Assembly (NCBI RefSeq): GCF_963676685.1
Contig: NC_092348.1
Location: forward strand, 42,718,001 to 42,782,000
DNA length: 64,000 nt
Origin: Mytilus edulis
Taxonomy: Eukaryota
Direction: 5' to 3'
The position numbers were made by a program, and so were the translations under genes. Positions 529-64,000 of this stretch are shown piece by piece (position 1 is the stretch's first letter; the number at the start of each line of letters is the position of its first letter). The notes under the pieces were generated by a model that searched no databases, was not told the origin of the DNA, and worked only from the letters and a program-made list of their open reading frames with translations.

Positions 529-817
529 AATCACAATTCTTACTCAATATTTTTTCAATCAGTATCAGTATTTTTAATTGTTACGATACATGTATTTCAC
601 ATATATCTTTTTACAGGTTGACTTAATTCTATTGATCTCAAAATGAGATACTTATTAATTCTATTGATCTCAAAGTGAGCAATACAGACTGAAATTTATG
701 TTTCATGTTAGATTATGTTCAATTTTATTGAAATCTGGTCGAAGCTATGAAACTGGGAGTTACTGTGTTGGAAGAAAAACTATGGATGAAAAAACAACTG
801 CAGTATATCATAGTACG

Positions 818-1780
818 TCATTTATTAAGGAGTGAATAAAAACTAATCTGGAGCATACTTAATAACTAAGACTTACCCCTGAAGCAGTACCTCATTTATT
901 GAGGAGTGAATAAAAACTAATCTGGAGCATACTTAATAACTAAGACTTACCCCTGAAGCAGTACCTCATTTATTGAGGAGTGAATAAAAACTAATCTGGA
1001 GCATACTTAATAACTAAGACTTACCCCTGAAGCAGTACCTCATTTATTGAGGAGTGAATAAAAACTAATCTGGAGCATACTTAATAACTAAGACTTACCC
1101 CTGAAGCAGTACCTCATTTATTGAGGAGTGAATAAAAACTAATCTGGAGCATACTTAATAACTAAGACTTACCCCTGAAGCAGTACCTCATTTATTGAGG
1201 AGTGAATAAAAACTAAATCTGGAGCATACTTAATAACTAAGACTTACCCCTGAAGCAGTACCTCATTTATTGAGGAGTGAATAAAAACTAATCTGGAGCA
1301 TACTTAATAACTAAGACTTACCCCTGAAGCAGTACCTCATTTATTGAGGAGTGAATAAAAACTAATCTGGAGCATACTTAATAACTAAGACTTACCCCTG
1401 AAGCAGTACCTCATTTATTGAGGAGTGAATAAAAACTAAATCTGGAGCATACTTAATAACTAAGACTTACCCCTGAAGCAGTACCTCATTTATTGAGGAG
1501 TGAATAAAAACTAAATCTGGAGCATACTTAATAACTAAGACTTACCCCTGAAGCAGTACCTCATTTATTGAGGAGTGAATAAAAACTAAATCTGGAGCAT
1601 ACTTAATAACTAAAACTTACCCCTGAAGCAGTACCTCATTTATTGAGGAGTGAATAAAAACTAAATCTGGAGCATACTTAATAACTAAGACTTACCCCTG
1701 AAGCAGTACCTCATTTATTGAGGAGTGAATAAAAACTAAATCTGGAGCATACTTAATAACTAAAACTTACCCCTGAAGCA
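818..1780. repeat. 74-75-bp minisatellite, 13 copies; the last copy overlaps the real splice donor of Mcr exon 1872-1771
   Basis: Unit CATTTATTGAGGAGTGAATAAAAACTAATCTGGAGCATACTTAATAACTAAGACTTACCCCTGAAGCAGTACCT. ACTTACCCCTGAAGCA counted 13 times. Confidence 0.95.
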
Positions 1781-16700: not shown

Positions 16701-19700
16701 CAAAGGATATTTACTTGCAAATATAAAGGGAAACAATTTCTGACCACAACGGATAAATTAAAGACAGTTTTATAGATCAAACTAATATAACAAGTCCTGT
16801 GTGTATAGGAAAGAGTGGAGTTTACATTATTGCCTAAATTTTACATATTTCATCACAAAATGACTGAAAACAGTCACTAAAAGACTAGAGGATATATTAT
16901 GCAAATTTCTCTGAATCATGTGTCTCTAAATCAATTTTTATTGGTTAAATAATGCAACAGCTGATTCTAGATTACAGTAAACCAACTTATTTCCAAGCAT
17001 TTTTTTCCAGAGTGGAAAAACATTGTCATGAATACATAAAACCTGGATCTTCCTTTATATAAAATTGTAAAAACAAATCAACATGAAGTGAGTATCTTTA
17101 AAGATAAATTGGATTTACAGTATACATATCATATTTGGGATCAATTTATGAAGAGTAAAACTAATTAAGCTATGCATTTCATATCTAAAAAATATGCCTA
17201 TTACTTACATAAATATCCAGACCCGTTATGGTATTATCTGTTATGGCTAAATTAATTTCTGCTATTCCATTAGTGGGTGTTACTGGTCCTGGTGTGGCTA
17301 CTGATCCTGTAGAACCTGATATTGGATTGACTATAAAGTGAATAGGTTTCGCAGGTTTAACCGCTGAACCATCAAAATGCATTGCTGCCACCTGCAGATT
17401 GAAAACAAAAAATATAAAAATTTCATCACATTTTCTACAATAATCTTTATTCCTCATGTAGATGATTCTTTGACTCATCATTTTTAATATGGACACATAA
17501 AACTTATAATCTCCATAATTGGGACACTTAATAAATTTCAATATTGGCTTGTTGAATAACTATCAAATTTCATTTATCACTTGATATTTCTGAGAGTCAA
17601 ATATATATAGAAAAATGTTGGTTTAAAATAAAGAAAAAAGATAAGTCTTCTTTTATATCTAACCAACATGAGCAATGTCGGTTTGAACTAAATTATAGGA
17701 CAAAATATAACTAGTTTTTTAAGGTTAAACACAAAATCAGAAATCAAGAAATAAACTGGTCAAACAGACGTGGATTCGGATGGGGAGGCACCTACGACAA
17801 AGGCATACAAAATATATAAATACCTGAATACTAAGAGTAGAATCTGGTTTGAATGTCCTGACAATATCTCCAACCCACTGTAATCTTATCCTGGAACTGA
17901 ATATTACAGTACTAGCATAGCCTTCCTCTGTCATCATAAAGAACCAGTCATATATACTGACATTAAACTGTAACTCAAAATCCTCTAATGTGACACACTG
18001 TGGGTAAAACCTTCTCACTTCTTGTCTTATTTGTTCCATGTCAAATTCAAAGAATATTGGTCCTTTTACCTATTAAATGTACAGTAAAATATGGATTTCT
18101 TTCTACTTCAATATTCTCTTTATTTACTTTCAATTTCAATGTTATCTATTTGTGCTAAGACTACAAAAAAGCATTTTGTTTGGTTGTTGCAATTGTCACG
18201 TTGATGTTTAGCCTACATCTTTATCTATTCATACATATGCAGATACCTTTATTACAACTTAAAGTTAATTTTCTGTCTTGTAATTATCTTTTTGCCTACT
18301 AGACTGTTATGAGCATGTATTAAATTGATATTATAATTTCTATCAATTATTGAGACTAAAATTCTATTAAATATTTTCAGCATCAATTTCTATTCGATAT
18401 TTTCAGCGTCAATTTCTATTTGATATTTTCAGCGTCAATTTCTATTTGATATTTTCAGCGTCAATTTCTATTTGATATTTTCAGAGTCAATTTCTATTTG
18501 ATATTTTCAGCGTCAATTTCTATTTGATATTTTCAGCGTCAATTTCTATTCGATATTTTCAGCGTCAATTTCTATTTGATATTTTCAGCGTCAATTTCTA
18601 TTTGATATTTTCAGCGTCAATTTCTATTACATATATGATGTGATACAGTTATCTGTGTGAAGCTACACTGTTTTGTCTCATTGGCATCTCCTTATTTCTA
18701 ATTAATAATTCTGTTCTTTCTCAATTGATAATGTGTCTACATTAATCATGATTATTCCATGAATACAGGTGAACCCAGGGATAAAAATGTTCAATTAATG
18801 ACATATTTTATATGAGGAAATATGCACACTTGAAAAAAAAACAAAAAATTGTATATCCAAGAAAACGCAAGTTTTCCTCAATTTACAAAAATTGGCACCC
18901 ATGAAAATAAATGAATATGCAGTATGAGATTTTTGTATTTTAAATAGATCATTATATGTATGAATTAAAAACTACTGTAAATAATAAATGTCCTACTTAC
19001 ATAAGGGTAAACTTGACGCAACATGACAGGAGTTATTTCTGACTTGTTATAATATACTGTAGGATTCTGGTAACAAAGTGAACTTGGTGGGTACACACTG
19101 ACAACAACTGTTCCATTTCCTTCTGTTGGACGACCAGTGGTAAAACTATATATATACAGAACAAAAAATATAGTATGATTGGGGACCAGTGGTAAAACTA
19201 TATATATAAAGAGTACAAAAATATGGTTACATGTATATTAAGGTTATCACACCTTCATCTAAATTAATTTGGCTAGTTTAATTTTCATAAAATTTTGACA
19301 CAATATTAAATTGGACTTTTTGACTAAAACACAAAAATTTCCAACGAAAATATATAGCATTGTGACAAACACTTATTTTTATAGAGAAAGCTTATATTTC
19401 CTTAACAATAGCATGTGATAAAAACGTTCAGCAGATTTTTACAGAATTATCTCCCTGTAGTGTTTTGTCAAATTACGGAAATATGCAAGAACATGTATAA
19501 GTAAAAAATTTTGAAAACGCCACGATACTTTACTTTTCTAATTATTTTCATTTTAGAATATTACCATAATTACTGAGGACTATATATTAACAAAAGTGAA
19601 GTTATATGAATATAAGGAAGTTGCAAAAAAAACCCATTTTTCAGTCAGTCAGTAAAAGGTGTATAGAATAAAAAAAAAGTATCTGAAAATAACGTTTACC

Positions 19701-36970: not shown

Positions 36971-39332
36971 CTCATTTGGATTACACCAATTTTCAATAAG
37001 GCTCTCTTAATACAATAATAATTACATTACAAATAAACAATGCATCAATAATAATGGTAAATAAAGATTATGTACAATTTTAAAATACAATAAACAATTA
37101 TGATATGGCATTACAGTAAAAATATGATGGTAATGTTAAAAGTACATAGATTTGTATTTATGTTTAAATTCGGATACTGTATTTGATTTTTTTTATTGAA
37201 TTAGGAAGAGCATTCCACACTTTTGGTCCATTGTACGAGAAACTAGACTTATACAACTCTGTATTTGGTTTTGGAATAATAAAATTATCTGAGGATGAAA
37301 ATCTCGTATTATATTTTTGGTTTGCAGAAGCTGATACAATAAGACTGGACATATATTCTGGAGCTAAGCCATGTTTTGCCTTATACATTAGTAATGATTT
37401 GTGATAAAGTATTCTTTGTGTGATTGGCACAATGTTACATTCGTGAAATAATTCTCTTGAAGGTTTGGTGTAATCATGTTCGTCTAAAATTATTCTTGCT
37501 GCCCTTTTTTGCAGTTTTAGTAAACTATCTAATAGAAAGTTATTACAGTTTCCCCATATTGAACAACAATAATCTAAGTGAGGTAAAACGTAAGCGTTAT
37601 AGTACATTTGTCTAGCTTTATGATTTAAATATTTCTTTATCCTTTTTAGTAAAGCTAAAGAAGAGTTTACTTTTTTTATTATATAATCGATATGAGAAGA
37701 CCAAGATAGAGATGCATCAATAAAAACACCTAGAACTTTTTCACATGTACTTTCTATAATTTGTTGTCCATTTAAAGCAAGATTAATGTTTTCATTTGAT
37801 GTAGCGGAAAGCTTTTGTTTAGATCCAATGCATATAGCTTTCGTTTTAGATACATTTACAGCCATTTTATTGTCATCACACCAGCGAAAAATATCTTGTA
37901 AAACCGTATTAAGTTTTTGACTGATGCAACTTTTGTTTTGTCCAATGACTGATATGGTGCTATCATCAGCAAATAAATCGGTGTTATGATTAGGATTAGG
38001 CAAAGGAAGATCATTAATAAAAATTAAAAACAACACCGGTCCTAATACAGATCCTTGAGGTACACCCGTTTTTTGTTTTTGTACGTCTGATAATGTATTT
38101 GAAATAGATACTTTCTGATATCTGTCAGCCAAATATGATGTAAACCAACGTAATGAAGTATAAGATAATTTGTATTTGTTTAATTTTTGAATAAGCAGTT
38201 CATGATTGAGAAGATCAAAGGCTTTTGCTAGATCTAGAAATACTGCTCCAACAAGATCGCCATCATCAATGGCTTTAAGCCATTTATCTATTAAAGCTGT
38301 TAAAGCAGTTTGACAAGAATGGTTTGCACGAAAGCCTGACTGCATTCTATACAATAACTTGTATTTATTAAGATATTTTACTAAGTGTGTTTTCACATGT
38401 TTTTCAAGGATTTTAGAAATGAGTGGTAAAATTGCAATTGGTCTATAATTAAAAACATCCTGTTTTGAGCCTTTGTTCTTATAAACTGGTATGACTTTTG
38501 CCAGTTTAAATGAGGATAGAAAAATACATTTTTTGATACTCAAATTAAAAATATGACAAAGTGGTAGTGAAATAGCATGAGAAGACATCTTTAAAAATTT
38601 TGCACTTATGGTATCAAGGCCTGTTGCTTTTGATTCATCTAGTGCTTTTAGTTGTAAACACACAAAATCATAACTCATAAGTGGTATAGAAAAATACACG
38701 TCATCTGGTACATGACCCGATATAAAATCACCAAGTTTGTTAAAACAACTACTAGAATTGTTAATGTTTTGATCTATATTAAGATTATCTGTGATATTTG
38801 TGAAATAAGCATTAAAAACATCAGCAATGCCTTTTAGTTCTAAAATTTCCTTATTGTTACAATCACTTATGATTTTTATACTGGTATGATTGTCGGTACC
38901 GCTGACAGTATGTAGGTGCTTCCATAATTTACTGCTGTTGCTCTTTTTTTGTTCTATGATATTGGTATAATAATTTTGTTTAGAGTTTTCGATGAGATAT
39001 TTGACTTTATTTCTCCAAAGTCTATAACTATACATATCTTTTTTCTTATGATAAAAATCACGTTTTTTCATGCTATCTAGAATTTCATCATTCATCCACT
39101 CATTTTGATACAAACGTTTTACTCTCTTTTTAATGAGTGGAGCATGATGATTTAATATTTTAGTAAAAATATTCAAAAAAGACAACAGTGCTTCTTCGGG
39201 GTCATCAATTTCTAATACACAATTAAATGAACACTGTGATATGTGATTGACAAAATCATTTTCATTAAAATGTTTAGTAGATCTGAACGTAATATATTCA
39301 TGAATTTTCTTTTTCTGCGTGATGACGGCCAA
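36971..39332 (-). mobile_element. 5'-truncated LINE (CR1/L2/Crack-group); RT ORF of 722 aa at 39332-37164 plus 3' UTR
   Basis: RT motifs NYRPIAILPLISKILEK, QSGFR, FLDLAKAFD, GVPQGSVLGPVLF, FADD. No endonuclease domain. Probable frameshift at the extreme C-terminus. Confidence 0.9.
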
Positions 39333-40554
39333 TAAGTTATAATGGATTTGTCAGGAATGTGTCAACAGTGTTTTATCATTTACTGTGTTAGAAGAATGTT
39401 GTTTATATGAAGAACAGCAATCAAGACACTTACGAAAATTTTGCAGTTTTGAGTTTTCCTTGGCCCAGGCGCGTAGCTCCCCATACGCTAACACGCAGTT
39501 GCGTGCACATCGATTCGGCATGCAAAAAACCTTGAAATGGCAAAATAAAAATTTATAGATTGTTAAAGGAAACACCTATGTTGTCACTTTTTTAATTGAT
39601 GAAATATCATTGAATAACGGCATTTGGTTTCAAAATAAAAGTTTTATTGGAGATTATGACAAAATCGGACAGTAACTTGTATCATTTACAAGATTTGAAT
39701 TTGTAATACTCAGTCTAAGACATGTAGTTTTTGGAGCACATTTTACAGTGTACGGTTCATCAGTTTGGAATTAGATGTACCAATCGGTATTATAATTATC
39801 AGAACCCTATAATATCGTTGAAATATGCCGAGGCGATGTGGTCGACAGACTACCAGAGCCAATCACCCTGCAAACACGCCAAAACAGTCTCATTATTTTT
39901 TGCGTTCATACACCATATGGTAAGGGAACTGGAGAGTGGATTCGCGTTTAGTATTATCAGAAAATCGCTTCTTTGCGCTGTATCTGCTTCATCGTGTTGT
40001 AAGAATTATAACAAACGAACAGCATTGTCTGAGACAGTACAAAACTGACCTGGCATGTAATTTTGACGAATTCAATTGGGAGGTCGCTCGATGCCGAACA
40101 CGTACGCTGCATGGTTTATAACATCTCGCGAGTGCTACCATGGAGATCTATCAGTGTACTACGTATGTTGAAAACAAATGTACGATCAACAATGAACAAC
40201 GACAGTTACTAGCATTTCTGCATATTCATCGGGATTTCAGTGTGAATATTAACAGTTAAAGTAATAGAGAAGTTTGTTTCTCCCTAGACCCGAAGAGCAG
40301 ATTTTGGACAATTTTGAGTAAATTCTGTATCACAAATATGTGCTGTTTATGTATTACTCTATTCAGAAGATTTATTGATAGTTTTTCATTCATATTTTTT
40401 TTATAAGTGCTATCTACATAAAGCCCCTCTTTTAACCGTCCTATGACCGAAAACTGAAGAAAAAAATTCTGCATAAAAGGGTCCCAAACATCGTTTCTTT
40501 CTAGCTACGCCCCTGCTTGCTTTGCTATTGATAAAACCATTCGACATATGCATA

Positions 40555-43283
40555 TGATACAAAATTTAATATGAACCCTCTCGATTATTGAATTATTCCT
40601 AAAACCCCAGACTTCACACCCATACAGAAGTATTGGTTTAACAATTTTATCAAATAGATCAAGTTGGCATTCAATTGACATATTATGTACTCTACCTTTT
40701 CGAATAATATCGTACATAGCATGTGTTGCTTTTTCACATTGCTTTTTTTTAGCTCTTGAAAAATTTCCTGACCTAGACAGTAATACACCAAGATAATTAA
40801 ATTCACTCACAATATCTAGTTTTATATTATCATACTTAAAAACAATATTCTGCGGTAGTCTAATTTGTGAAAAAATTACAATCTTACTTTTTTCCACATT
40901 TACTCTAAGTTTCCATAACTCACAATATTCATATAAGAAGTCCAGTTGTCTTTGTAAAGCTATCTGAGATTCTGCCATTAAGACAGTATCGTCAGCATAT
41001 AAAATGACAAACAATTTTAAATAAACATTTAACTCTATTTCTAACTCATCAGAGATAGTGCAAAAACCTTCTATATTATTATTCTGTAAAAACAATTCCA
41101 GATCGTTGAGATAAATGGAAAAAAGCAAAGGAGAGAGATTCTCTCCCTGCCTAACACCAATTGAACAAGAGAAAAATTCAGAAAGATCTGATCCAAAGTG
41201 AATACGTGATTTGATATTATTGTACATGTTGACAATAACGTTATACAAACTATAGACGACGGTTACGTTTGTTATTACCTCCCCTGAAACTGTTGGATAT
41301 GCCCTTCATCGAATGTTTTATAAGTTTTGACCAGAGACCAGACCGCCAAACAGTATCGAATGCTTTCGAAAAGTCAAGGAAAGCACAACATAGTTTCTTC
41401 TTTTTCCTCTTTAGCAACTCAAATAATATGTGAATAACAAATATATTGTCTACTGTGGAATAACCTTTTCTGAAGCCAGCCTGGTTTTCATTTAATAATA
41501 AATAATCCTCGAAGAAAGAACTCAATCTAAAATTTATAACAGATGTGCAAAGTTTTCCCAGGCAGCTGAGTATAGTAATTGGTCTATAATTTTGGGGATC
41601 AGATTGGTCACCCTTGTTTTTATAAAAAGGTATGATATTTCACATAAGCCATATTTCAGGCAAAGTACCAGAATCAAAAATCATATTAAAAAGTTTCACA
41701 TAAACGGTATAAAAAAGTGTGATGTGCTTTTTTTTAATAAATTCATTGATTATTAAATCATCGCCACTGGCCTTCTCGTATACACTTAATAATCTCATCT
41801 GCGGTAATTTCTGAATTCAAAACTTCATTTACACCTTGAATGTCATTCGGCTCAGTTATGACATCATTTGTATTCTCGGCGTTATTTAAATTTTTTAAAA
41901 AATCAAACAGTACATCTAATGCTATGTTAGGTTTATTTCTTTTCCCTCCCCTAGTTAAAATTTTCCAATATTCCTTCGGTTTTTTGTCCTCAGGTTTTTC
42001 ATATGTTTTTGATTTTTTTTTCTATATTCCCTCATCGATTTATCCATCTGGCGTTTATATTCCCGTTCTTTCTTTTTCATTTCTTCCCTTTTTGCTTCTG
42101 ATCTATTACTGTTATAATTTCTCTTTGCTCCCCTGTAAATCTTTCTCTTATTCCAACATTGCTTATCAAACCATGATTTGTTCCCCTTTTTGGCCATTTT
42201 TTCCCCTGTACGACTCCCTTGGCTAGCATCTATATGTACCTAGAACATTATCTGCAGCATCCAATAATATGCTGTTAATTTTTTCGACTACATCGTTAAT
42301 TTTGCCTTAAGATAAAAGGTTACTGTCAACTGATTCTAATTCGGCAACCAAATCTGAAATTTTGTCCTTATCGATACATTCTACGAATTCATTCTTTTTC
42401 TCAACGTCCCATTTTTGTACCCGTTTTACTTCTCTTGCATTTTCCATGCTGTTCTCAGCAATATGCACATCTTCCTCAATACCATCTTCAAAATTTAAAG
42501 ATAATATTAACGGAGAGTGGACATCTGAGAAAAGCTTGGAAAAGTCTTGAACATACATATTTACAACGAAACATAGACAATCATAAGTACAAATAAAATA
42601 ATCAACAACACTGGCCTGACGGCAAGTAAATTTGCCTTCTTTGTCACCATTAACTCTACCATTAAGGATAATTATATTATTGTTTTTACACATTTCTAAC
42701 AACATGTTACCATAAGAGTTTTAACTTGTATCCATACTACATCTAACTTTAGACATGTCATATAAAACTAGATTGTTTAAAATATCTACATTATCAGTAT
42801 CAACAATATCATGCTGACTATGAACAATTTCAATATATTCTACATCTCGACTAGTTCTACTATTAAAATTACCATTTAAAGTATATACTTGTACTCTACA
42901 GAAAATTTCTAAAATTCTTTTTCTTATTCATTTAAAGCATCAGGAACCTTATATACAGAATTTTCTGGAGGGATATAAATATTTCCTATCATGACATCTT
43001 GGTCAGTTTTAAGTAAATCGGAAGAAATTTTCCACCAATATACTAAACTACTGAAATTTTCAACTGGCTTTACAAAATTTTCCAAGTGGGATTTATAGCC
43101 GAAAGCTATTCCCCCCGATTTAACTCTTGCTATATTTTTTCTATTTTTCGGATGAAAAGTAAATCCTGGAATATTTATCTTATCTAGATCATCTGTTTTA
43201 GTTTCAACAAGAGAAATAAAAACAAATTTTTGAACCATTTCTATAAATTCTGAGCACATTTGCCTTTTAAACGTACTTACCAA
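40555..43283 (-). mobile_element. Decayed APE-RT LINE (RTE-X-like), multiple frameshifts, 3'-truncated
   Basis: Endonuclease pieces ISLVETKTD, GGIAFGYK, YIPPENS, SVVDY, SDVHSPL; RT pieces QAGFRKGYST, FLDFSKAFDTVWR, GVRQGENLSPLLF, LYADD, KPILLYGCEVWG. Confidence 0.88.
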
Positions 43284-49679: not shown

Positions 49680-50847
49680 AATTTATTTTGTAAATACTAA
49701 TTAGAATAGAAAACCATGTTGATCCTTCAACTGTATTCTTATCCCACCAAATATAGTAATAGTGTTGTATTGTAATTCTGAGATCAATCAGCATACATGT
49801 ATAGTTGTAGATGTTCCTGATGTTTTAGTGTTCATAGTGTACTGCAAGTAATTTCTCATTGTGAGCTCTGTAGAGTTTGACAATAAACTAAGTGTATATA
49901 CATATGCCTAGAAGCAAGAAACAACCTAAGACAAAACTCTATAAGATAAACCAAGTATGTGCACAGCTTAAAAATGATGCCATATATTCTACTATAAGGC
50001 ATAACAGGTTACTGAGTACTGTAAAGACTCTGCTTAGTATCATCCTATGCATTGACATATACCCCATATTTGCAAGGGAGTGCAGCTTCTCATTTACCAA
50101 TTTCTACATTTACATGTATGGATAATTTGACGACGGATCTTACCACTAGTATAGTAATAAGAAAGGTGATGTCGACTTACTATTTTGATTCTCTATTATA
50201 TCACTCCCTAATGTAATAATTAGACAAAACTAAAGTAGTTAATAATTTCTATTAATAAAAAACATAATATCAAAATATTTACATACACAATAAATCACTC
50301 AAAATTACTCTAATCAGAAAGATTATACTATATTACATAACTTCTTAATACAAAATAACTAAAAACTTATACTTGATTTGGGTTTGGGGCAGACTCAGCA
50401 TTTTCTAAATTACTGACATTATTAAACTCGGTGTAGCAGCTATTGGAAAGCTTTTAGAACATAAGAGTAAGTGTTTACTCACTGTAAATGCTGTAGCTTA
50501 GGCTACAAGAGCCGGAATAACAATGTCAGTAATGCACATGGAAGTAATGCTCAACTCGGTGTAGCGGTCAACTCGGTGTAGTTAGCTACAAGAGCCGGAA
50601 GCAATGTTAGATGCTACTCGGTGTACCCAGAACTACAAGAGCCGGAAGACAAGTGTGCTACAAGAGCCGGAAGAGCATTACTTCAAATTGATGTGGATGA
50701 AGATAGCAAAACTGCTAGACAAATTTAATAGCCCATTCAAATATTAATGTACATGTACTGTACATGGAAACAAATGAAAACTACAGAATTTTGGGGAATT
50801 AATGAATTATGTATTCCCATTACCAGATTAATTAATTAATACGGCCA
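49680..50847. repeat. Split direct repeat B2 (1168 bp)
   Basis: Appears identical to 51237-52404 (offset 1557; identical spurious ORFs at 49892 and 51449). Confidence 0.95.
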
Positions 50848-51236
50848 ATATGGCTTTAACAATTTTAACTGAATCTGCCCAAAGTACATGCATATAGTCG
50901 ACAAGTGTAAATACATACAATAATCATGATAATGTACTAAATTAAAAGGATAAATATATGAAAAAATATTCACAAGAAGTTACATGTTAACAAAGCAACA
51001 TTAAATGTGCTAAACAACATTCAAAAATTTATGGAAGAGCGGCGGGGATGGTGGTGGCTGTATAAACTTTGATAAGACACAAGACCTGGCAGTAACAATG
51101 TTAAACGATCAATGATGTCATAATTAATTAACAGCCAATCAAAAGCCTTGACAATCAGAACTAAAAATAACTGTCTTATAGTTGAGTCTATAGGAACAAT
51201 TTAACAACATAAACATGACTTATACTTATAAGTCTT

Positions 51237-52404
51237 AATTTATTTTGTAAATACTAATTAGAATAGAAAACCATGTTGATCCTTCAACTGTATTCTTATC
51301 CCACCAAATATAGTAATAGTGTTGTATTGTAATTCTGAGATCAATCAGCATACATGTATAGTTGTAGATGTTCCTGATGTTTTAGTGTTCATAGTGTACT
51401 GCAAGTAATTTCTCATTGTGAGCTCTGTAGAGTTTGACAATAAACTAAGTGTATATACATATGCCTAGAAGCAAGAAACAACCTAAGACAAAACTCTATA
51501 AGATAAACCAAGTATGTGCACAGCTTAAAAATGATGCCATATATTCTACTATAAGGCATAACAGGTTACTGAGTACTGTAAAGACTCTGCTTAGTATCAT
51601 CCTATGCATTGACATATACCCCATATTTGCAAGGGAGTGCAGCTTCTCATTTACCAATTTCTACATTTACATGTATGGATAATTTGACGACGGATCTTAC
51701 CACTAGTATAGTAATAAGAAAGGTGATGTCGACTTACTATTTTGATTCTCTATTATATCACTCCCTAATGTAATAATTAGACAAAACTAAAGTAGTTAAT
51801 AATTTCTATTAATAAAAAACATAATATCAAAATATTTACATACACAATAAATCACTCAAAATTACTCTAATCAGAAAGATTATACTATATTACATAACTT
51901 CTTAATACAAAATAACTAAAAACTTATACTTGATTTGGGTTTGGGGCAGACTCAGCATTTTCTAAATTACTGACATTATTAAACTCGGTGTAGCAGCTAT
52001 TGGAAAGCTTTTAGAACATAAGAGTAAGTGTTTACTCACTGTAAATGCTGTAGCTTAGGCTACAAGAGCCGGAATAACAATGTCAGTAATGCACATGGAA
52101 GTAATGCTCAACTCGGTGTAGCGGTCAACTCGGTGTAGTTAGCTACAAGAGCCGGAAGCAATGTTAGATGCTACTCGGTGTACCCAGAACTACAAGAGCC
52201 GGAAGACAAGTGTGCTACAAGAGCCGGAAGAGCATTACTTCAAATTGATGTGGATGAAGATAGCAAAACTGCTAGACAAATTTAATAGCCCATTCAAATA
52301 TTAATGTACATGTACTGTACATGGAAACAAATGAAAACTACAGAATTTTGGGGAATTAATGAATTATGTATTCCCATTACCAGATTAATTAATTAATACG
52401 GCCA
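51237..52404. repeat. Split direct repeat B1 (1168 bp)
   Basis: Copy of 49680-50847. Confidence 0.95.
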
Positions 52405-52695: not shown

Positions 52696-53703
52696 TCAAT
52701 TCTTTGCTAAAGAATTTTGAGCTCTTTTCAGGTCAGACTCTGAAATTTTTATATATCTACAGTAAGCATCTGAAGACCATCTTCCCATAACTTTTATCAA
52801 GTGGTCTTCAACCTGAACTGAACCGGCAGTTGTCGCTGCCCCTATACGAAAAGAATGGCCACTGTAATAGGTAGAGTCAATACCTAAACTATCTAAAGCA
52901 TGTTTGAATAAAGAGAGAAATTTAGCTCTGGTGACAGCAGCCCCAGTTAAATCGACAAACAATGGAGTTTCAGGAGACAGATTCCTTTGAAAGCGATTAT
53001 TCATATACAAACAGCATATCCTATGTGGGCAAATCTCAGTACCTGTTTCAAAAAGTTTAATAGTCACACCTTGTCTAAAAGGATCTGTTTTAGAAATTTT
53101 AAGCTTAAGATGTATACTGTCGCTTAGAATAGTAATATCTGAAATACATAAATTAAAAGCTGGATCAAAATTTCCACAACTATCAACTGTGAATTCACCA
53201 CATCTTAAAAAACCAAAAAATGCAACTGTACACATAGTTTCTAATAATAAATTCTCATAACTACTGTTCTGGCGCAGCCAGAGACAGACTTTCTGTAAAA
53301 TATCAAAAGTTATAGGGTACCTTGGTTTAGGATTGGTTTTATAAGTACGCTTTACTCCATTCAGTATAGCTTTGAGTCGTCTTAACTTAGTTAAATCAGG
53401 ATAATTTATGTTAAGTTCTAAACATTTGAACCTAATACCACACAAATACAATTTAATAGTACTATAACTTATATGTAGTCTACTTGTACAATAAGCAACA
53501 AAAAGTAATAATAACTGTTCATTGACTGGTACACACCCAGGCAATATTAAAGCAACAACACCCGTTAATAACAAAAAAGAAGTGTATGATCTAAAACCAG
53601 TTTCATAAGTTTTTCTTGTGCCTGTAGATATTGCTGCCTCCCACAACTGGCTAACTACGGTGTCGAGCTCCATAACACAAGTTGAGGAGGAGGAACTTTG
53701 CAT
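52696..53703 (-). CDS. Tyrosine recombinase of the retrotransposon, intact 335 aa
   Basis: FFGFLRCGEF, SKTDPFRQG, GHSFRIGAAT, GRWSSDAYCRY; overlaps the pol 3' end by 49 nt. Confidence 0.93.
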   Translation of the reverse strand: MQSSSSSTCVMELDTVVSQLWEAAISTGTRKTYETGFRSYTSFLLLTGVVALILPGCVPVNEQLLLLFVAYCTSRLHISYSTIKLYLCGIRFKCLELNINYPDLTKLRRLKAILNGVKRTYKTNPKPRYPITFDILQKVCLWLRQNSSYENLLLETMCTVAFFGFLRCGEFTVDSCGNFDPAFNLCISDITILSDSIHLKLKISKTDPFRQGVTIKLFETGTEICPHRICCLYMNNRFQRNLSPETPLFVDLTGAAVTRAKFLSLFKHALDSLGIDSTYYSGHSFRIGAATTAGSVQVEDHLIKVMGRWSSDAYCRYIKISESDLKRAQNSLAKN

Positions 53704-55298
53704 GGAACCTCCTGTGCTTCTTTTGCAAGGCGACGAAATTTGTTTATCTGCAAACGAGACAAAGCATCAGCTTTAGAATTAAATTTTCCTGGTACATGTT
53801 TAGACAAAAACACAAAATTTTGTTGTGCAGCAATTAATGTAAGTCTCCTTACTAAAGGCATTATATGAGCTGATTTGGAACGTCCTTTTTTCAAGATGGC
53901 TACCGTAGCCTCATTATCACACATAAAAATTATTCGTTGCTTTTTCCACATGTGTCCCCACAAAACGGCTGATACCACTATAGGGTACAATTCTCTAAAA
54001 GCTATAGATACTTCTTTCTCATCAACTACTAAATTTGAAAACATTGATGGCCATGATTCAGCAAACCACAGTCCTTTATAATAGCCACCAAAACCGATAG
54101 AACCAGAGGCATCTGTATATAAACACAAGTCATCAGAAGTTATATTTTCTTTGTTATAAAACATGCTGACACCATTCCAATTTGAAAGAAAAAAGAGCCA
54201 CATTCGAATGTCTACCCTGCATTCACATGTTAGTTTGATATAGTGGTGTAACGCCTTAACTGTTGTTGACACTAAGATCAGATGGGATACAAATGTTCTC
54301 CCTGGGATGACGACTCTAGATGCAAAATTTAAATGGCCTAGTAATTGTAACACCTCCCGCTTTGTGCAGGATTTTTTAATCAGAAACTCTTTCAAGAAAG
54401 ATGAAATTCGAATAAGTTTATCGTTTGGCAGTCTTGCCTCCATTAAATTTGAATCCAGAATAATTCCAAGATATTCAATAACTGTGTCTGGACCTGAAGT
54501 TTTATGTTTAGCCATTGGAATCTTGAGAGTGTCAAAAATGTAGTATAATAAATCCATATTTCTCTGTCCACATTTATGTGGATGTTCAAAAGTTATGAAG
54601 TCATCAAGAAGGTGCAAAATGAATTCTATGCCAAAATTATTCTTTGCTATCCAACATACTGCTTGCGACAAGTTATCAAAAATTCTTGGGCTTGATCGAC
54701 AGCCAAATGCAAGTTTGGTATAGAAATAATATTTTGTACGCCATTTAATACAAAACATGTGCCACTGTGAGGGTAATACTGGCATTAACTTGAACGCATC
54801 AGAAATATCGGTTTTACACATGGTTGTGTATCTTCCTAAATTCTGTATAATTTGAATTGCATCGTCAATGCGCACATATGATAAAGAGCAACTATCTTTG
54901 TCAATCATGTCGTTAACACTTTGATGCACAATATTTTCATGTGGGGAAGATAAGTCTACTATAAGTCTTGGCTTTCCTGAATATTTTCCTATTGCAACAC
55001 CTATTGGGCTTACTCTGTATTGCTGAAAATGCAATTCCTCAAATGGCCCTTCTAAAAACCCTTTATTAACTTCACTTTCAATAAGTTTATCAACAATATC
55101 TGGTTGAGTAATAGCTGATCTTAAATTTCGACATTCTTTAGTAGGAACATCTGTATTAGAAATTAAGGTATCGAAACCAAAAGCAAGGCCATGGCATAAA
55201 TAGTTTACAAATTGTTTATCTGGATGATTATGTAACTGTTGCTTTAACTCATCTACATTAATTGGAGTATCAACTTTTTCTCTCTGGTTAAAATCTAG
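53655..55298 (-). CDS. Pol (reverse transcriptase plus RNase H), 547 open codons starting directly after the gag stop, without its own ATG
   Basis: The frame is open from 55298 (LDFNQREKVDTPINVDELKQQLHNHPDKQFVNYLCHGLAFGFDT...GPF). RT motifs PRLIVDLS, KTDISDAF, LAFGCRSSP, HLLDDF, YLG. RNase H motifs YTDAS, RELYPI, CDN, ADALSR. Confidence 0.92.
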   Translation of the reverse strand, partial: LDFNQREKVDTPINVDELKQQLHNHPDKQFVNYLCHGLAFGFDTLISNTDVPTKECRNLRSAITQPDIVDKLIESEVNKGFLEGPFEELHFQQYRVSPIGVAIGKYSGKPRLIVDLSSPHENIVHQSVNDMIDKDSCSLSYVRIDDAIQIIQNLGRYTTMCKTDISDAFKLMPVLPSQWHMFCIKWRTKYYFYTKLAFGCRSSPRIFDNLSQAVCWIAKNNFGIEFILHLLDDFITFEHPHKCGQRNMDLLYYIFDTLKIPMAKHKTSGPDTVIEYLGIILDSNLMEARLPNDKLIRISSFLKEFLIKKSCTKREVLQLLGHLNFASRVVIPGRTFVSHLILVSTTVKALHHYIKLTCECRVDIRMWLFFLSNWNGVSMFYNKENITSDDLCLYTDASGSIGFGGYYKGLWFAESWPSMFSNLVVDEKEVSIAFRELYPIVVSAVLWGHMWKKQRIIFMCDNEATVAILKKGRSKSAHIMPLVRRLTLIAAQQNFVFLSKHVPGKFNSKADALSRLQINKFRRLAKEAQEVPCKVPPPQLVLWSSTP

Positions 55299-55537
55299 TC
55301 ATTTATTAATATTGTCTGTGTTGTTTTGTTTTGGATTTTTCTTTCCTGGACACCTGAATGCTGCATGGTTATTAGAATAGCAAATAGAACAAACATGCGC
55401 ATATTGACATGGTTGCCTATTACACCTCCTATCATTAAAGTTATTACAAATTTCCGTTTCATTATGAGTTACTCTTTTTCTACCATAACGGTCCAAATCC
55501 TTCACAGCAAAAGTTGAACTTTTAGAATAACTAGCTG
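55299..55537 (-). pseudogene. 3' remnant of gag with tandem zinc-finger motif
   Basis: EICNNFNDRRCNRQPCQYAHVCSICYSNNHAAFRCP...NINK*. The 5' part is deleted and joined to the A1 remnant. Confidence 0.8.
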
Positions 55538-55604
55538 TGTCTTATAGTTGAGTCTATAGGAACAATTTAACAACATAAACATGACTTATACTTATAAGTC
55601 TTAA
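55538..55604. repeat. Split direct repeat A1 remnant (67 bp), identical to 51172-51238
   Basis: TGTCTTATAGTTGAGTCTATAGGAACAATTTAACAACATAAACATGACTTATACTTATAAGTCTTAA occurs at both places. Confidence 0.92.
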
Positions 55605-56616: not shown

Positions 56617-59600
56617 ATGGTAAGAAGGTTATGTTTAAAACAATTATTTTCTAATTTTAACTTGATTTTTTTTAGAGACATATGAGAAACTGTTAAGCAT
56701 TGGAATGAAGTTTCTACTTTATGTATATATACACAAAATTATAATAAAACGACAGTCTGTCCAAATTTTAAGATTGATTGGTTATTGGTTGCCTCACGTC
56801 CAGTGGCCACATTCTAATACATGTAGAATCATATTCAAAACAGTGTAGCTGTAGCCATTCACGGATTGACAACCTTAAATTATCCCATTGACTGGGGCAG
56901 ATTATGTGAACGTTTGTCTGTAACAACCGCTGCTCACTATGTACTTGTTAAAGGCACTTAAACTGTGGGGTCACAAAAGGTTCTCAACACCTAAATAAAG
57001 AAATTAGAAAAACTTATCAGGAATAACACGATGTTTTGATTTATATCAATAATATAAATCAAAACATAAAGTTATTCGTGATTAATTTTTCGAACTATTT
57101 TAATATTAAAGGCGTTAAGAACCTTAGGTGACCCCACAGTTTAAATTCTATAATAAGTAAGTAGTGAGCAGTTGTCGTTACAGACACACGTTCACCTAAT
57201 CTGCCCTAGTCAATGGGATAATTTAAGGTTGTCAATCAATGGCCACAGCTACACTGTTTTGAATATGATTCTATAATCATATAAAAGTATAAAAAAATAA
57301 AGTTATGGTGACATTTTTTTTAAATATGAAAGATCAATTTTTCGTTTAAAAAATTGAGAGAGGCAGGGAGGTCAACTAAACAACCAAACCTTTTTCTGGT
57401 GTATTTGTTTTGTAAAGGCAAAAGGATAGAAGTATTTGTGGGATTTGAACTAATCACCAATATTTGAGGGCAAAATGTATATACATCGCCTGAGGATTAA
57501 AACAAACATTTTAAATGTTTTTATAGCGATATTAAATAATTTCATTTCTAATCGTCAACTTTTAATCGTTTTACTCTTTTTGAAGGATACACGAATACTG
57601 ATTCTGTGGATAACAGTATATCTATGCCTTTTTGTAAGCAGCATAGAATCAAAAAGTTTTTTCATCCATTCGTCGGTGGTCAATGGAAAAAAGAAAATTG
57701 TTGCCACCGAAGTAAACTCGACGGCATCCTCATTTGGAAATACCCGCCCTAAAACTGCAGCTGAACAGAAGTCTGGAAAGTTCGAGATTCCACTATCGTC
57801 TGCTGACCAAGAATGGCTCGGATCTCTGTTGTACCATCCTAATGAAAGTGATATTCGATTAAGAAAGGAGTACAGACAATTATCTGAAAAGGAAAGAGGA
57901 GATTTAAATGTAGCATTTAATCTATTAAAGAATGACACGGTAAGAGTTATTATATATATTCATTTACACCATGTTCCACATTCAATCAACGTGAATGTCC
58001 TTTGTAAAGCGTCCTGTTACAAAGGAGGCGAAAGGCCATTCTCTTTGAAAGTACTCTCAAGAAATATTCAGAACGGATCAGATGGTTTTTGGTTGTCATT
58101 TAAATATGGTTCAATACCCCACTTTCAGAATTCGTGTTTCGGTTGTGGTTAATTTCTTTATTTTTATAATAAGATATTTTAATTGCCTAAAACTTAATAA
58201 TTGTAATCATATCTTATGTACATACATGTCTTTAGGCTAACAAAGAAACCGGCTACATAATGTTAGCATTTAATGATCTTTAATCTGGGATATGCAGCTT
58301 GGCGTTGTTTTTTTTATTATTATATCGGAATGACTTTTCAAATTGCTTTTGTGTTGTTCCGTTATCTGAGTGAACAGTTTCTGATGTTTCTATGAAGTTA
58401 TTAATATGATGGTGGTTATTTTAATGTTGAAGTACATTGTAATAAGCAGATAAGAGTAACAGATGTCGAGGAATTTCAGACACAGCAATCGATCGAACAA
58501 AACAAATTTTATAAAAAATAAACATCAGACACCTTAATCATACCGTCTTTAACAATAGAAATATTTATCCCACAATGTCAGATGTGTGTAAAAGAAAGAT
58601 TGACCGATTGTTTGTTGCTTAACGTCTAGTGGCTTAGTAATTTTTCATGCATCTTCAAGACGATAAACAGATGGAAAACAATTACATAAATGCCTCTGAT
58701 GCCTAAAAATAACCCCACAAAATCCTTTAAAAGTTTTTCTTCCTGTGTTCCTTTAAGATTATTTTATAGGTAGTGGCTATTTGACCGGCACCGGCTAAAT
58801 AGCAAATTTGCTATTTGACCGGCACCGGCAAAATAGCAAATTTGCTATTTAGCCGGCACTGAATAAAACTGTTCATTGATGGGATTAGTAGAGAATGAAA
58901 AAGCTTAATAATAAATTAAAATAATTTTATCACAATATCAATCATTAAAATTACAGTACAACCAAAATAAAAACAAATGATAGTTTGGGTCAAATCTTTT
59001 GGCCTTCCACATTTCTTAATATTTGGTTGAAGTAATATATGCGAAACACGCGATCCACAACAACTGGAATTCAGTAGGTGTTATTCTTGTTGAGCGGTAT
59101 CTCGTTCTTCTTTTTGCGAAACTTGTGAAACTTGTTTTCGTGAATTTTCGAATATTTGAACATTATCAGTATCATTTTCTTTATTGTCTGTTACATTTAT
59201 ATCATCATTAATGCCTTCAATATCCTCATTAACATGTACGTGTGTTTGTTCATGTTCATTGCCACTTGAACTTGTGCTTTCCACAGAATCAGAATCTATA
59301 ACTTCAAGAACCATACACTTCTTCCCATGACTCCAAAAATTTGTAACGCTCTGAATAACATCTAACGCTCTGTTCAGTGATATGCGCCACCAGAAGCTTT
59401 GGATAAACCTAGCCATTTGCTGTAACAGAATTTGTGTCTCCCTGTATTTTGTGCTTTGAGAAATTTTCCTCACTCTTTTTGGTGTACATATGATGACTGG
59501 GTTTCTGATATAACAGTATCATCAAATAATCTAAGTGATGTCCTTACTGTGTTAATCTCCCAACGATCTGACACTGCAGCAGCAACAATCAAATTTTCGT

Positions 59601-62600
59601 GATTAACTTCATTTAGTTTGAGTATATGCCTACACAGAAGAAGCATACTTTTAACTGCCTCTTGTTTGGACTCAATTGAAAACATTGGTTTAATCAAAAA
59701 GTATTGTCAAAAAGATGCATGGGAAGCTATTAAATAAACTCATCATAGATACCAGGACTAAATTTTATATATACGCCAGACGCGCGTTTCGTCTACAAAA
59801 GACTCATCAGTGACGCTCGAATCCAAAAAATGTTAAAAAAGCCATATAAAGTACGAAGTTGATGAGCATAGAGATCCAAAATTCCTAAAAGTGTTTCCAT
59901 AGCTACGGTAATCTATGCCTGAGGTAGAAAAGCCTTAGTATTTAAAAAAAAATCAAAATTAAGAGCGTATATAAAGAGAAGAAAAAGAACCCTATCTACA
60001 TATGCAACATATGCACACATGATGCAGATTCAAAGGAAGCCAGTGTAATGTGTAGTTCCTGTTCGGAGTGGCAACATTTATCTTGTGCTAGATTAAAACA
60101 ACTTACAAAGGCAAAGAATTAGTTTTGTAACAATTGCAAATGTTAAATCATGTGTCCTTTTGAAATTCGTAGCAAACAACTTTTAATATTGTCTTTTTTT
60201 ATGATGTACGTAGTTTAACATAACACTATTTTTATAGCATGGCAGGATATTTAAACCATAGATTTTACACAGATTTGGACATCTTTTTAATAAATATTTT
60301 AGAAAAAAATATATTTAGTAATGTACAAATGTGTTTTCATGCTTTTAATTAATATTATAAAGTTATAAATTATTTGTTGATAAACATCTTCAATATTTTA
60401 TTTTTGATTGTACTGTATATTTAATGCTTGATATTGTGATAAAATTATTTTAAATTCTTATTAAGCTTTTTTATTCTCTACTAATCACATCAATGAACAA
60501 TTTTATTCAGTGCCGGCTAATTAGCAAATTTGCTATTTTGCCGGTGCCGGTCAAATAGCAAATTTGCTATTTAGCCGGTGCCGGTCAAATAGCCACTGCC
60601 TATTTTATATTGAACACTGTCAATAAATTGAAAAATCGGAGACAGAAAAAATACCAATTATTGAGCCATCACAACTATTTCATCCAATATTTCAATCAAT
60701 ACTCAACCTAATGAAGTTTGATCATCAGAAGTAACTTTTAATGTTTCTACTTTATTTTTAGTCAGTTAGTTTGAACAAATATGACCTGCTGGCTAATATC
60801 CATGCTCGATCGTCTGCTAATGCTAATGCACATCAGGGACCAAATTTTATGGGCTGGCACAGAGTTTTTCTACTGATGTAAGTATCTGAATTAAATCTTC
60901 AAAAGGCTAGCAAAGTGTTCTAATATATATTATAAGGGTTTTGGAAAGGTTTATGCAATAGAAGACAATGGTGGACAGAATAACGAAAAAGACCTAGAAC
61001 GAAAAGAATACTTCTATAAATGAAGACATCCCATCCATTCACTCTTTATATCCATCATCATGACAGATGGATTAAAGGACAGGTTAAAAATAAATACTAA
61101 GTATGGTCTTAGGACCAGGTCCAATTTTCGCATGATAATCAACAACCTGATAACTTAAATGAATCTAGAATATGAGACTGCAAACAAACGACAAAAATAA
61201 TGAAAAAAAACACAAGAGTGCACACGCTGAAATGTCTCGCCTTCTATACTAATCATTGATATTATGTTGATAGTCCTAAGCATAAAGCTAAGCTTTATTA
61301 CAACTGTCACATAAACTTAACATTAACCAAGATAACTAAACAAAGACCAATGAACCTTGAAAATTAGGTCAAGGTCAGATGAACCATGCCAGGCAGACAA
61401 GTACAGCTAACAATGCTTCTATACAACATATATAGTTGACCCATTACTGATAGTTTAAGAAAAATAGACCAAAACACAAAAACTTAACACTGTGCAATGA
61501 ACCGTGAAAATGAGGTCATGGTAAAAAAAACCTTGCGCGATTGACATAAAGATCATAAAATATTTCCATACACCAAATATAGTTGACCTATGGCATATAG
61601 TATTAGATAAAAAGACCAAAACTCAAAAACTTAACTTTGACCACTGAACCATGAAAATGAGGTCAAGGTCACATGACATCTGCCTGCTAGACATGTATAG
61701 CTTACAATCATTCCATACAACAAATATAGTAGACCTATTGCATATAGTATGAGAAAAACAGACCAAAACACAAAAATTTGACTATAACCACTGAACCATG
61801 AAAATGAGGTCAAGGTCAGATGACACCTGCCAGTTGGACATGTACACCTTACAGTCCTTCCATAGACTGAATATGCTAGCCCTATTGCTTATAGTATCTG
61901 AGATATGGACTTGACCACCAAAACTTAACCTTGTTCACTGATCCATGAAATGAGGTCGAGGTCAAGTGAAAACTGTCTGACAGACATGAGGACCTTGCAA
62001 GGTACGCACATATCAAATATAGTTATCCTATTACTTATAATAAGAGAGAATTTAACATTACAAAAAATTTGAACTTTTTTTTCAAGTAGTCACTGAACCA
62101 TGAAAATGAGGTCAAGGTTATTGGACATGTGACTGACGGAAACCTCGTAACATGAAGCATCTATATACAAAGTATGAAGCATCCAGGTCTTCCACCTTCT
62201 AAAATATAAAGCTTTTAAGAAGTGAGCTAACACCGCCGCCGCCCGATCACTATCCCTATGTCGAGCTTTCTGCAACAAAAGTTGCAGGCTCGACAATAAT
62301 TATAGGGGGCAACATACACACTTCAACAATAGACATGTGTCTATACAAAATGTTCAGACTCAAATTCGTCCAGTAATTAAAGTATACTTATATGCATAAT
62401 CAGCATTCAACTGTCATATAAGTTTCCTTCAAACTGTCACTTGTTCTGGTCCTTACATTCAAATATCTTATAGGTATCTTTCAAACTGTCACTTGTTCTG
62501 GTCCTTACATTCAAATATCTTATAGGTATCTTTCAAACTGTCACTTGATCTGGTCCTGAACATGCATGAAACATTTGCCACTGGACGTTAATCAACTAAC

Positions 62601-63797
62601 AATCACCAATAAAACAGTCACATAGCATTAAGGAGAAAAGGCTGATGGCTTGGAGTCTGATTGATGTGTTGGGGAAGGGTTGCAAGTTACCTTGTGAACT
62701 ATTATTCTAAATATCCAGATCAGCCTGTCAGTCTAGTACAAAGCATGGTAAATCATACCACATCTCCTTATTTTTATATTAATATTTTTAAAACATTAAC
62801 ATATTCTCGTCCTGACACATGCATTTCATTTGCCAATGAATGATAAGCAGCCATCCATCATCATAATTATATGACTTGACTAATCTTCTCTTTTTAAAGG
62901 ATGGAGAATGCATTAAGACAGAAAGTAAAGACTGTAACAATACCGTACTGGGATGTAACATTGGACGAAGCAATGGACAAGCCATACAGTTCTGTCATCT
63001 GGTCACCTGACTTTATAGGAAGTGGTGATGGGGTCATCAAAAAGGGAGCCTTTGGTCATTGGCAAACACAATTTGGGTATGGCAACCTCATGAGGTTTTT
63101 AGGCGGACAAGGGAAATTAATGTCAAAAGAAAATGTTGAGGATATTTTATCAAAGAGCAGATTAGGGGAGATAACAAATCCTGCAGCCGAAAAGAAATTC
63201 AACATTGAAGAAATTCACAATGATGTTCATGTGTGGATTGGTGGGCAAATGAAAACAATAGAAATAGCTGCTTTTGATCCAATATTTTATCCTCTTCACT
63301 CGTTCACAGACTGTATATGGACAGAATTCAGAGAACAACAAAAAGCAAAAGGAATTGATCCTACCTCTGATTATCCTGAATTTTATGGAAGACCGACACA
63401 CTCACCGTTTGCTCCAATGTCTTTGGGAAGTGTTATGGTTATTGATGGAATAAGTGACATTTGGAATCAATATGTACACTATACACCTAGGCCTTTCTGT
63501 AATGAAACTTACAATGGATGTAACTCTCTGTACATGAAATGTGATATTTCTAAAAGAAAATGCATATCTAAAAGTAGGAGTGAAGTTGAAATTGAAAATC
63601 AGTCATCAAAATTGAAAAAGGACGATGAAGTGCCAACTGATCTTGTGAATTCAGGATTTAAAAATAGTGTAAGTTTCAGCAAAGAATCAGACTCTGAAAT
63701 GTTGTATATTTCAAACCGACAGCTTATCAAAAGATCAGCTGTTGTCAATTACAGACATTTTACTAAATTGAGCGAAAACTCCATAGCAGCTCACAAG
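56617..63797 (+). CDS. Secreted tyrosinase-like type-3 copper protein; 3' end uncertain
   Basis: Exons: ATG 56617-56619 (ATG|GTAAGA), 57586-57939, 60762-60877 and 62900-63797 (or reading on to the stop at 63932); phases consistent. Signal MDTRILILWITVYLCLFVSS; RLRKEYRQL; CuA IH...AHQGPNFMGWHR; IPYWD; CuB HNDVH...FDPIFYPLH; Cys-rich segment after the catalytic domain. Confidence 0.88.
56824..57273. mobile_element. About 450-bp foldback element (whole-length imperfect palindrome, TA at both ends) in tyrosinase intron 1
   Basis: TAGAATCATATTCAAAACAGTGTAGCTGT ... ACAGCTACACTGTTTTGAATATGATTCTA; arms pair up to the centre ATGTTTTGATTTATAT-CAATA-ATATAAATCAAAACAT. Confidence 0.85.
59734..59962 (-). 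mobile_element. Retrozyme-like insert (about 225 bp) carrying a hammerhead ribozyme
   Basis: Interrupts the plus-strand reading ...DAWEAI|KSVYKEKKK...; ATTAA at 59729-59733 and 59958-59962; removing the insert restores the frame. Confidence 0.75.
59773..59816 (-). ncRNA. Minimal type I hammerhead ribozyme
   Basis: Minus strand reads GCGUCA-CUGAUGA-GUC(UUUUGUA)GAC-GAAA-C(GCGC)G-UC^-UGGCGU. Complete core, helix II GUC/GAC, minimal helix III with palindromic loop, helix I GCGUCA/UGGCGU. Confidence 0.85.
61208..62298 (+). mobile_element. Helentron/HINE-like element with about 147-bp internal tandem array, in tyrosinase intron 3
   Basis: TGAACCATGAAAATGAGGTCAAGGTCA recurs at about 147-bp spacing; (GCC)n; 3' hairpin TGTCGAGC..CTGCAAC-AAAA-GTTGCAG-GCTCGACA. 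Confidence 0.7.
62428..62557. repeat. About 52-bp tandem repeat x2.5
   Basis: TTCAAACTGTCACTTGTTCTGGTCCTTACATTCAAATATCTTATAGGTATCT. Confidence 0.85.
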
Positions 63798-64000
63798 GTA
63801 GTGACAATAACAACAATTTCAGATGTTTACCAGTTCTATTCATATTTAACAGATTCTCATACAGACTTGATTAACTTATTGTTATTTCTGATATATTTGA
63901 ATCAATTTCACTTTAAACCAGAACACTATTGAATTCATTCAGAAATAAAATATGCAGAGATTACCTGTATCAGGGATGTTTCATTTAATCATCTACACCA

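Follow-up and report, generated by a model that had tools for sequence, protein, structure and literature searches.

The window, as we call the whole 64,000-nucleotide stretch analyzed here, comes from a host that we took to be a mussel using the standard genetic code. On its minus strand it carries a retrotransposon that extends from position 55604 to 49680 and reads as an A1 remnant, the end of gag, an in-frame TGA, pol, a tyrosine recombinase and the repeats B1, A2, and B2 (Table 1). The same stretch holds a tyrosinase gene, whose upstream exon presumably lies near 57830-57940 on the plus strand (a guess from an N-terminal motif), a long cytochrome P450 frame, exons of a thioester-containing / alpha-2-macroglobulin-type gene, two LINE-like elements, two elements resembling MITEs or DNA transposons, and four intervals of repeated DNA.

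Table 1. Features of the retrotransposon and of the remainder of the window (positions counted from the first letter of the window).
Feature	Position	Strand	Remarks
A1 (split direct repeat), 5' remnant, element start	55538..55604	-	67 nt; 100% identity with 51172-51238 and with L140 2947-3013
Last 80 gag codons, with Cys/His knuckle, no start codon	55302..55541	-	sister L140: 604-codon open gag, same TGA
In-frame TGA, gag/pol boundary, likely readthrough codon	55299..55301	-	TGA in 40/40 in-frame families
3' context CTAG	55295..55298	-	family comparison: C invariant, CT 32/40, CTA 21/40, CTAG 9/40
pol frame, 547 codons + TAG: pre-RT region, RT, RNase H	53655..55298	-	RT motif-A Asp 164, LDD 232, RNase H Asp 396, first Met codon 131 (54908)
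Tyrosine recombinase frame, 356 codons	52696..53766	-	Met at 53703 and 53673
Split direct repeat B1, 1168 nt	51237..52404	-	100% identity with 49680-50847
Split direct repeat A2, at least 181 nt	51058..51238	-	99% to 5' end of L140
Split direct repeat B2, element end	49680..50847	-	
Tyrosinase gene	62898..63929	+	Pfam E 2.8e-21
Cytochrome P450, single long frame, 537 codons	45540..47150	-	E 1.6e-117
Thioester-containing / alpha-2-macroglobulin-type gene, exons	~2300..19300	-	TED 4104-4376, A2M_BRD 15709-16122
LINE-like reverse transcriptase elements	37167..39350; 40508..43283	-	second fragmented
Fold-back element, MITE- or DNA-transposon-like	56824..57273		450 nt
Element with inverted ends, MITE- or DNA-transposon-like	58766..60603		1.8 kb; ends 208 nt, 94%
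Tandem arrays and a 660-nt direct repeat (99%)	812..1780; 10603..12058; 12344..14425; 61334..62140		arrays of ~75-nt units, 147-nt units, one mixed

By layout and domains the element is Ngaro-like: it combines split direct repeats, RT/RNase H and a tyrosine recombinase, and split direct repeats without a methyltransferase are what defines Ngaro (PMC4157794; 10.1101/2021.08.05.455354; PMC8547959). The first-pass annotation had recognized a tyrosine-recombinase retrotransposon, and the repeats, together with R, HxxR, and Y in the recombinase frame, bear this out. An A1-ORFs-B1-A2-B2 layout was found in the window and in the intact copies L141, L147, L148, L149, L150, L151, and L159, with gag, RT/RNase H, and the recombinase in that order and in the same orientation, which is the A1-gag-RT/RH-YR-B1-A2-B2 plan of Ngaro-like elements of the order DIRS. 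No match to a methyltransferase domain was found after RNase H, just past which pol ends (535-547 codons). A DIRS-like (DIRS-1) assignment, which calls for inverted terminal repeats, an internal complementary region, and a methyltransferase, was rejected, as the repeats are direct, not inverted, and the methyltransferase is missing; the element may nonetheless represent a PAT lineage that has lost its methyltransferase, a loss for which there is a precedent (PMC4157794).

At the junction, gag ends in AAT AAA TGA (55301-55299, minus strand) followed by CTA GAT TTT, and the frame then stays open for 547 codons to a TAG at 53657-53655, with GPFEE closing at codon 88 and the first Met of pol at codon 131 (54908), 3' of RLIVDLS (codon 111); on re-reading the sequence, we found every detail given by the annotation correct. 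RT lies in this frame as proposed (Pfam RVT_1, E 1.4e-7, above the cut-off). For RNase H and the tyrosine recombinase the outcome was mixed: the recombinase motifs are present (Arg188, His304-x-x-Arg, and Tyr338, in a frame that overlaps the end of pol by 112 nt), but the Pfam matches of the window copy are weak (RVT_3, RNase H-like, E 0.076; Phage_integrase, E 0.035), and the Phage_integrase match of the intact copy L141 (E 1.1e-4) also lies below the Pfam cut-off. The gag frame had no Pfam match. What had been overlooked is that gag is deleted in the window copy, where the A1 remnant is joined to the 3' end of gag across a deletion of ~1.5 kb (3013 to 4558 on L140). Because this deletion removes the gag start codon, the window copy cannot make Gag-Pol itself and could be mobile only via the proteins of other copies, and any claim of readthrough applies to intact copies of the family. 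Three other copies of the window subfamily keep TGA CTA G and lose pol after 57-77 codons, and among the own-genome matches listed, none from this subfamily was fully intact. Intact copies exist in other subfamilies, such as L141, with a gag of 478 codons, TGA CTA C, a pol of 540 codons, a recombinase of 360, and A repeats that are 100% identical. The best named protein matches were from Mytilus (85% and 99%).

To place the junction in context, we compared it across copies and families. A protein search of the genome returned at least 152 matches (150 scored among 712 candidates), making all counts lower bounds, and 115 copies whose match starts near the start of pol were examined, with a few such matches left out and with L003/L004 and L030/L065 as possible assembly duplicates. 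A cut at 78% amino-acid identity divided the 115 copies into 26 subfamilies, 14 of which carry pol in the frame of gag and share 44-78% pol identity with one another. TGA-CT is present in 65 of the 70 copies of these 14 subfamilies, the five exceptions being one copy with TAA-CTG and four that indels or rearrangement have disrupted. Twelve subfamilies have CTA as the codon right after the stop, one has CTG, and one has CTC; CTA makes up 11% of the 702 Leu codons in their pol frames. Recent intact copies, with A repeats 99.6-100% identical, carry the same stop. Beyond this genome, the sample comprised 88 loci from metagenome and MAG contigs, which we interpret as animal DNA carried into these assemblies, and the junction was readable in 62. 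At 36 of these loci the knuckle of gag shares the frame of pol and there is a stop within 30 codons, which is TGA-C in 34; for the two exceptions (L181, L228), gag stands in a different frame in the other member of each family. Of the 34, four fall into own-genome subfamilies and 30 form 26 new families, giving a total of 40 in-frame families, 14 from the genome itself and 26 from outside. Named protein relatives came from oysters, scallops, and fish (proteins only, without DNA), and the viral contigs searched contained no relatives.

All 40 families have TGA at the junction with C at +4, whereas CT extends to 32, CTA to 21, CTAG to 9, and CGG to none, so that the type II motif UGA-CUA is present in the window family and the context is looser in others. 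The annotation had suggested testing whether TGA-CTA(G) is conserved in frame while its neighbors drift, and this holds for TGA-C but not for the complete CTAG. It is the base and not the amino acid that is fixed after the stop, because the residue encoded there varies (Leu 32, Gln 7, Pro 1), with codons that are mostly CUA, CAA (six families), CUU, CUC, CCG, or CAG; all 32 Leu codons are CTN, compared with 42% of the Leu codons in pol. On the other side of the stop, the final Gag residue is any of 12 different amino acids. The commonest base is common to 40/40 families at TGA-C versus 13-27/40 at positions -12 to -1 and +7 to +16. As a control, the stops that end pol in the same elements (n = 27) are TAG in 10, TGA in 10, and TAA in 7, with TGA-C in three; the difference between 40/40 and 3/27 is far beyond chance, where 40/40 measures persistence under selection among families that share ancestry, not 40 independent trials. 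The spacing from knuckle to pol takes 21 values between 77 and 119 codons in the 35 measurable families and is always in frame; the linker has thus taken many indels and yet kept both the frame and TGA-C.

Sister families show other arrangements. The heptamer A_AAA_AAC stands in gag phase with pol in the -1 frame in four own subfamilies (SF9, 16, 17, and 18; L067, L082, L091, and L098) and at six outside loci (L179, L202, L224, and L241-L243), 10 in total, and these are likely -1 frameshift sites; the own subfamilies have a GC-rich hairpin of 6-7 bp ~7-9 nt downstream, and four further -1 loci are without the heptamer. Replacement of the stop by a -1 overlap would be expected if the site controls a ratio. 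Fish proteins of ~1000-1160 residues extend without a break from knuckle to RT, as taken from protein annotations. In the P0095 cluster (P0095, P0121-P0131), known as protein only and left out of the family counts, 12/12 members read K-W-(L/P) at the junction, which may reflect a genuine TGG or gene calling that rendered TGA as Trp. A quick LG+G4 tree covered 69 rows, all of them unnamed elements or uncharacterized fish proteins, and omitted two TGA families whose matches were short. It places 38 TGA rows, nine -1 rows, five fish proteins, and P0095 in a single clade (SH-aLRT 100), separate from 16 rows that have a +1 overlap or acceptor. TGA families occur at several depths of the tree, and the AU test does not reject their monophyly (p-AU 0.45). 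A pyrimidine tract and TTTGCAG/G precede pol, far from gag, in L117, L123-L125, and L128 (SF21) and in L158, where an intron between gag and pol is likely; SF20, the sister of SF21, has AG/GTAAG at the end of gag. In SF8 (L147, L148) the pol frame itself ends in TGA-CTA-A, which may be chance or a second leaky stop. A GDSL/SGNH hydrolase frame, described for Xenopus Ngaro, is present here in more distant subfamilies but was absent from the intact TGA-clade copies examined; weak matches to this family lie in an extra frame after the recombinase of L156 (6013-6636), L157 (6019-6744), and L158 (8752-9408).

A stimulatory hairpin downstream of the stop, raised as a possibility by the annotation, did not materialize: no 3' fold was found in windows of 45, 70, 120, and 150 nt, evaluated for local pairing only, and mean folding z values lay between +0.3 and +0.7. 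These means were +0.33, +0.51, and +0.69 in three windows for the 14 own subfamilies, +0.35 for the 26 outside families, and +0.28 in 45-nt windows for all 40, with z of -2 or below in 1/14 and 2/26 of the 120-nt windows and 1/40 of the 45-nt windows. The same 45-nt test at four of the genome's own -1 frameshift sites returned z values of -4.0, -2.6, -2.7, and -1.1, detecting hairpins at three of the four. The junction unites an in-frame arrangement and an invariant TGA-C without a conserved local hairpin.

We propose that intact copies very probably make Gag-Pol by reading through the conserved UGA-C. The earlier suggestion that Pol is produced as a Gag-Pol readthrough fusion is supported by sequence for intact copies, but does not extend to the gag-deleted window copy. 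A single genomic RNA would be translated from the gag ATG, most ribosomes would terminate at UGA, and a few percent would insert an amino acid and translate on through RT and RNase H. The UGA would be decoded by a near-cognate tRNA, those for UGA being Trp, Arg, or Cys, with termination weakened by C at +4, often as part of CUA. No protease frame was seen in the element, and the fusion would therefore probably stay uncut. If context acts alone, the rate would be ~1-2%; a UGA-CUA context yields 1.5% readthrough in HEK-293T cells (PMC4132726). Readthrough of UGA would set a high Gag:Pol ratio, and a large excess of Gag is needed by all retroelements (PMC2194720). Against readthrough stand the 3' structures often present at viral type II sites (PMC3159437), of which none was found here, and the gag-UGA-pol junction of Tca2, which did not drive readthrough in yeast (PMC2194720).

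Pol might instead be made separately, by reinitiation, from a non-AUG start, or from a transcript initiated at the junction as in Tca2, with TGAC(T) serving as a DNA or RNA element. We consider this improbable, though Tca2 provides a precedent in its minor promoter at the gag-pol junction (PMC2194720), an A before TGA creates an AUGA overlap in 21/40 families, and five families have a Met ahead of the first conserved motif, where a start of pol is possible. The ATG of AUGA is, however, out of the pol frame, and in the three subfamilies checked its frame runs for 3-5 codons before closing. In 7 of the 34 families with a recognized motif, pol has no Met until past the RT motif-A Asp, and CUG, as a non-AUG start, follows the stop in just 3/40. 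Separate translation is further disfavored because it would not need gag and pol to be kept in frame, leaving their shared frame over 21 spacings without a reason. The ATG-less stretch between the stop and the first Met diverges as coding sequence, its codons differing most at position 3, then 1, and least at position 2 (10/10 pairs), and pol generally cannot start by itself. Even less probable is a spliced mRNA that drops the stop, with TGAC or TGACTAA as branch point or CTAG as 3' splice site, for which one could cite TGACTAAC in SF5, which resembles a branch point, the AG that ends CTAG in 9/40 families, a pyrimidine-rich CAG at +27 in L039, and the pyrimidine tract and CAG ahead of pol in the more distant SF21. 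The CAG of L039, however, is CAT in both sister copies, 6/34 families lack any AG ahead of the first conserved motif (4/34 have neither AG nor ATG), and the phase of the first AG varies. An ATG or a splice that rescues pol, which the annotation had named as counterevidence to its proposal, was thus not general in the 40 families, early Met codons being confined to five.

RNA reads bear on the same point. Three raw RNA-seq runs from one study, under another species label and with ~6% of each run read, yielded 611, 465, and 347 reads that matched L141 at 90% likeness, a depth of 7.5-10 in the junction bin, and 9-12 reads covering the points 12 and 24 nt beyond the stop. No joint skipping the stop was found in the three runs at this depth of ~8-10, at which a minor isoform would be missed, and none of the RNA variants listed changes the stop position; these reads argue weakly against a major spliced form and say nothing of translation. 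The reads are strongly stranded, and antisense if the common library protocol was used. In one run, joints from L141 1961 to 5492 and from 7775 to 5492 (5 and 9 reads, non-canonical ends) connect the end of repeat A to mid-recombinase, and probably derive from an expressed copy with an internal deletion. We give very little credence to selenocysteine: the codon is TGA in all 40 families, never TAG or TAA, as this reading would have it, but no Rfam family, SECIS included, matched the five intact 9.9-kb loci, the site lies within an unalignable linker, and the termination context accounts for UGA-C. A private nonsense mutation in a dead fused gag-pol copy, or a host code with TGA as sense, has a negligible chance of being right; the window copy is defective and the fish relatives appear in annotations as one Gag-Pol protein, but both ideas are refuted by the recurrence of this stop across 40 families and among recent intact copies. 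Sister copies and distant families alike keep TGA-C in frame, as the annotation's proposal required, and TGA ends 10/27 pol frames normally.

Readthrough of UGA-C at this junction would put a known mechanism in a new setting, and conservation supports it strongly. The type II motif, UGA-CUA/CGG, operates at alphavirus nsP3-nsP4 and in tobraviruses (PMC3159437, PMC13517186), likewise as UGA-C, mostly CUA, upstream of the polymerase; the present junctions differ in having no local 3' stem-loop, a looser context, such as CAA, and a retrotransposon as host. The window copy shares its UGA-CUAG context with mammalian readthrough genes (PMC4132726). In the gammaretrovirus MuLV an in-frame stop lies between the Gag zinc knuckle and the enzymes, as here (PMC13517186), but MuLV combines UAG-G with a pseudoknot, a protease, and a DDE integrase, whereas we found UGA-C, no structure, and a tyrosine recombinase. 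The Candida albicans LTR retrotransposon Tca2 has the same gag-UGA-pol in one frame (PMC2194720), but with a purine spacer and a predicted pseudoknot, without readthrough in yeast, and in a different retrotransposon order. Ngaro frames are overlapping in Xenopus or usually without overlap (PMC3266345), and the portions of the Ngaro descriptions compared here mention neither recoding nor an in-frame stop at the gag-pol boundary, in contrast to the present elements. In the literature searched, which included PMC6681497, PMC3266345, PMC3783388, PMC8547959, PMC4157794, PMC13517186, PMC5009743, and PMC2632668 but did not extend to the founding Ngaro papers, Repbase, or supplements, and within the parts of it that were available, there was no report of readthrough in DIRS-order elements.

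Pol expression in DIRS-order elements has rarely been addressed in the accounts available to us, which only draw the frames. The signal from 40 families is precise and testable, and would extend programmed readthrough to another retrotransposon order. Gene callers cut these Pol proteins back to downstream Met codons, and repeat annotation would misjudge intact copies as broken by nonsense mutations. The 40 natural junctions constitute an allelic series for the +4 to +6 context of UGA in invertebrates, and the -1 frameshift sister families allow a direct comparison between recoding modes. On balance, we lean toward the view that a large animal clade of tyrosine-recombinase retrotransposons makes Pol through a structure-free UGA-C readthrough, which lineages within it have swapped for an A_AAA_AAC -1 frameshift or a plain fusion. 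If true, three interchangeable modes of setting Gag:Pol would exist side by side in one genome, none of them, to our knowledge, described for the order so far.
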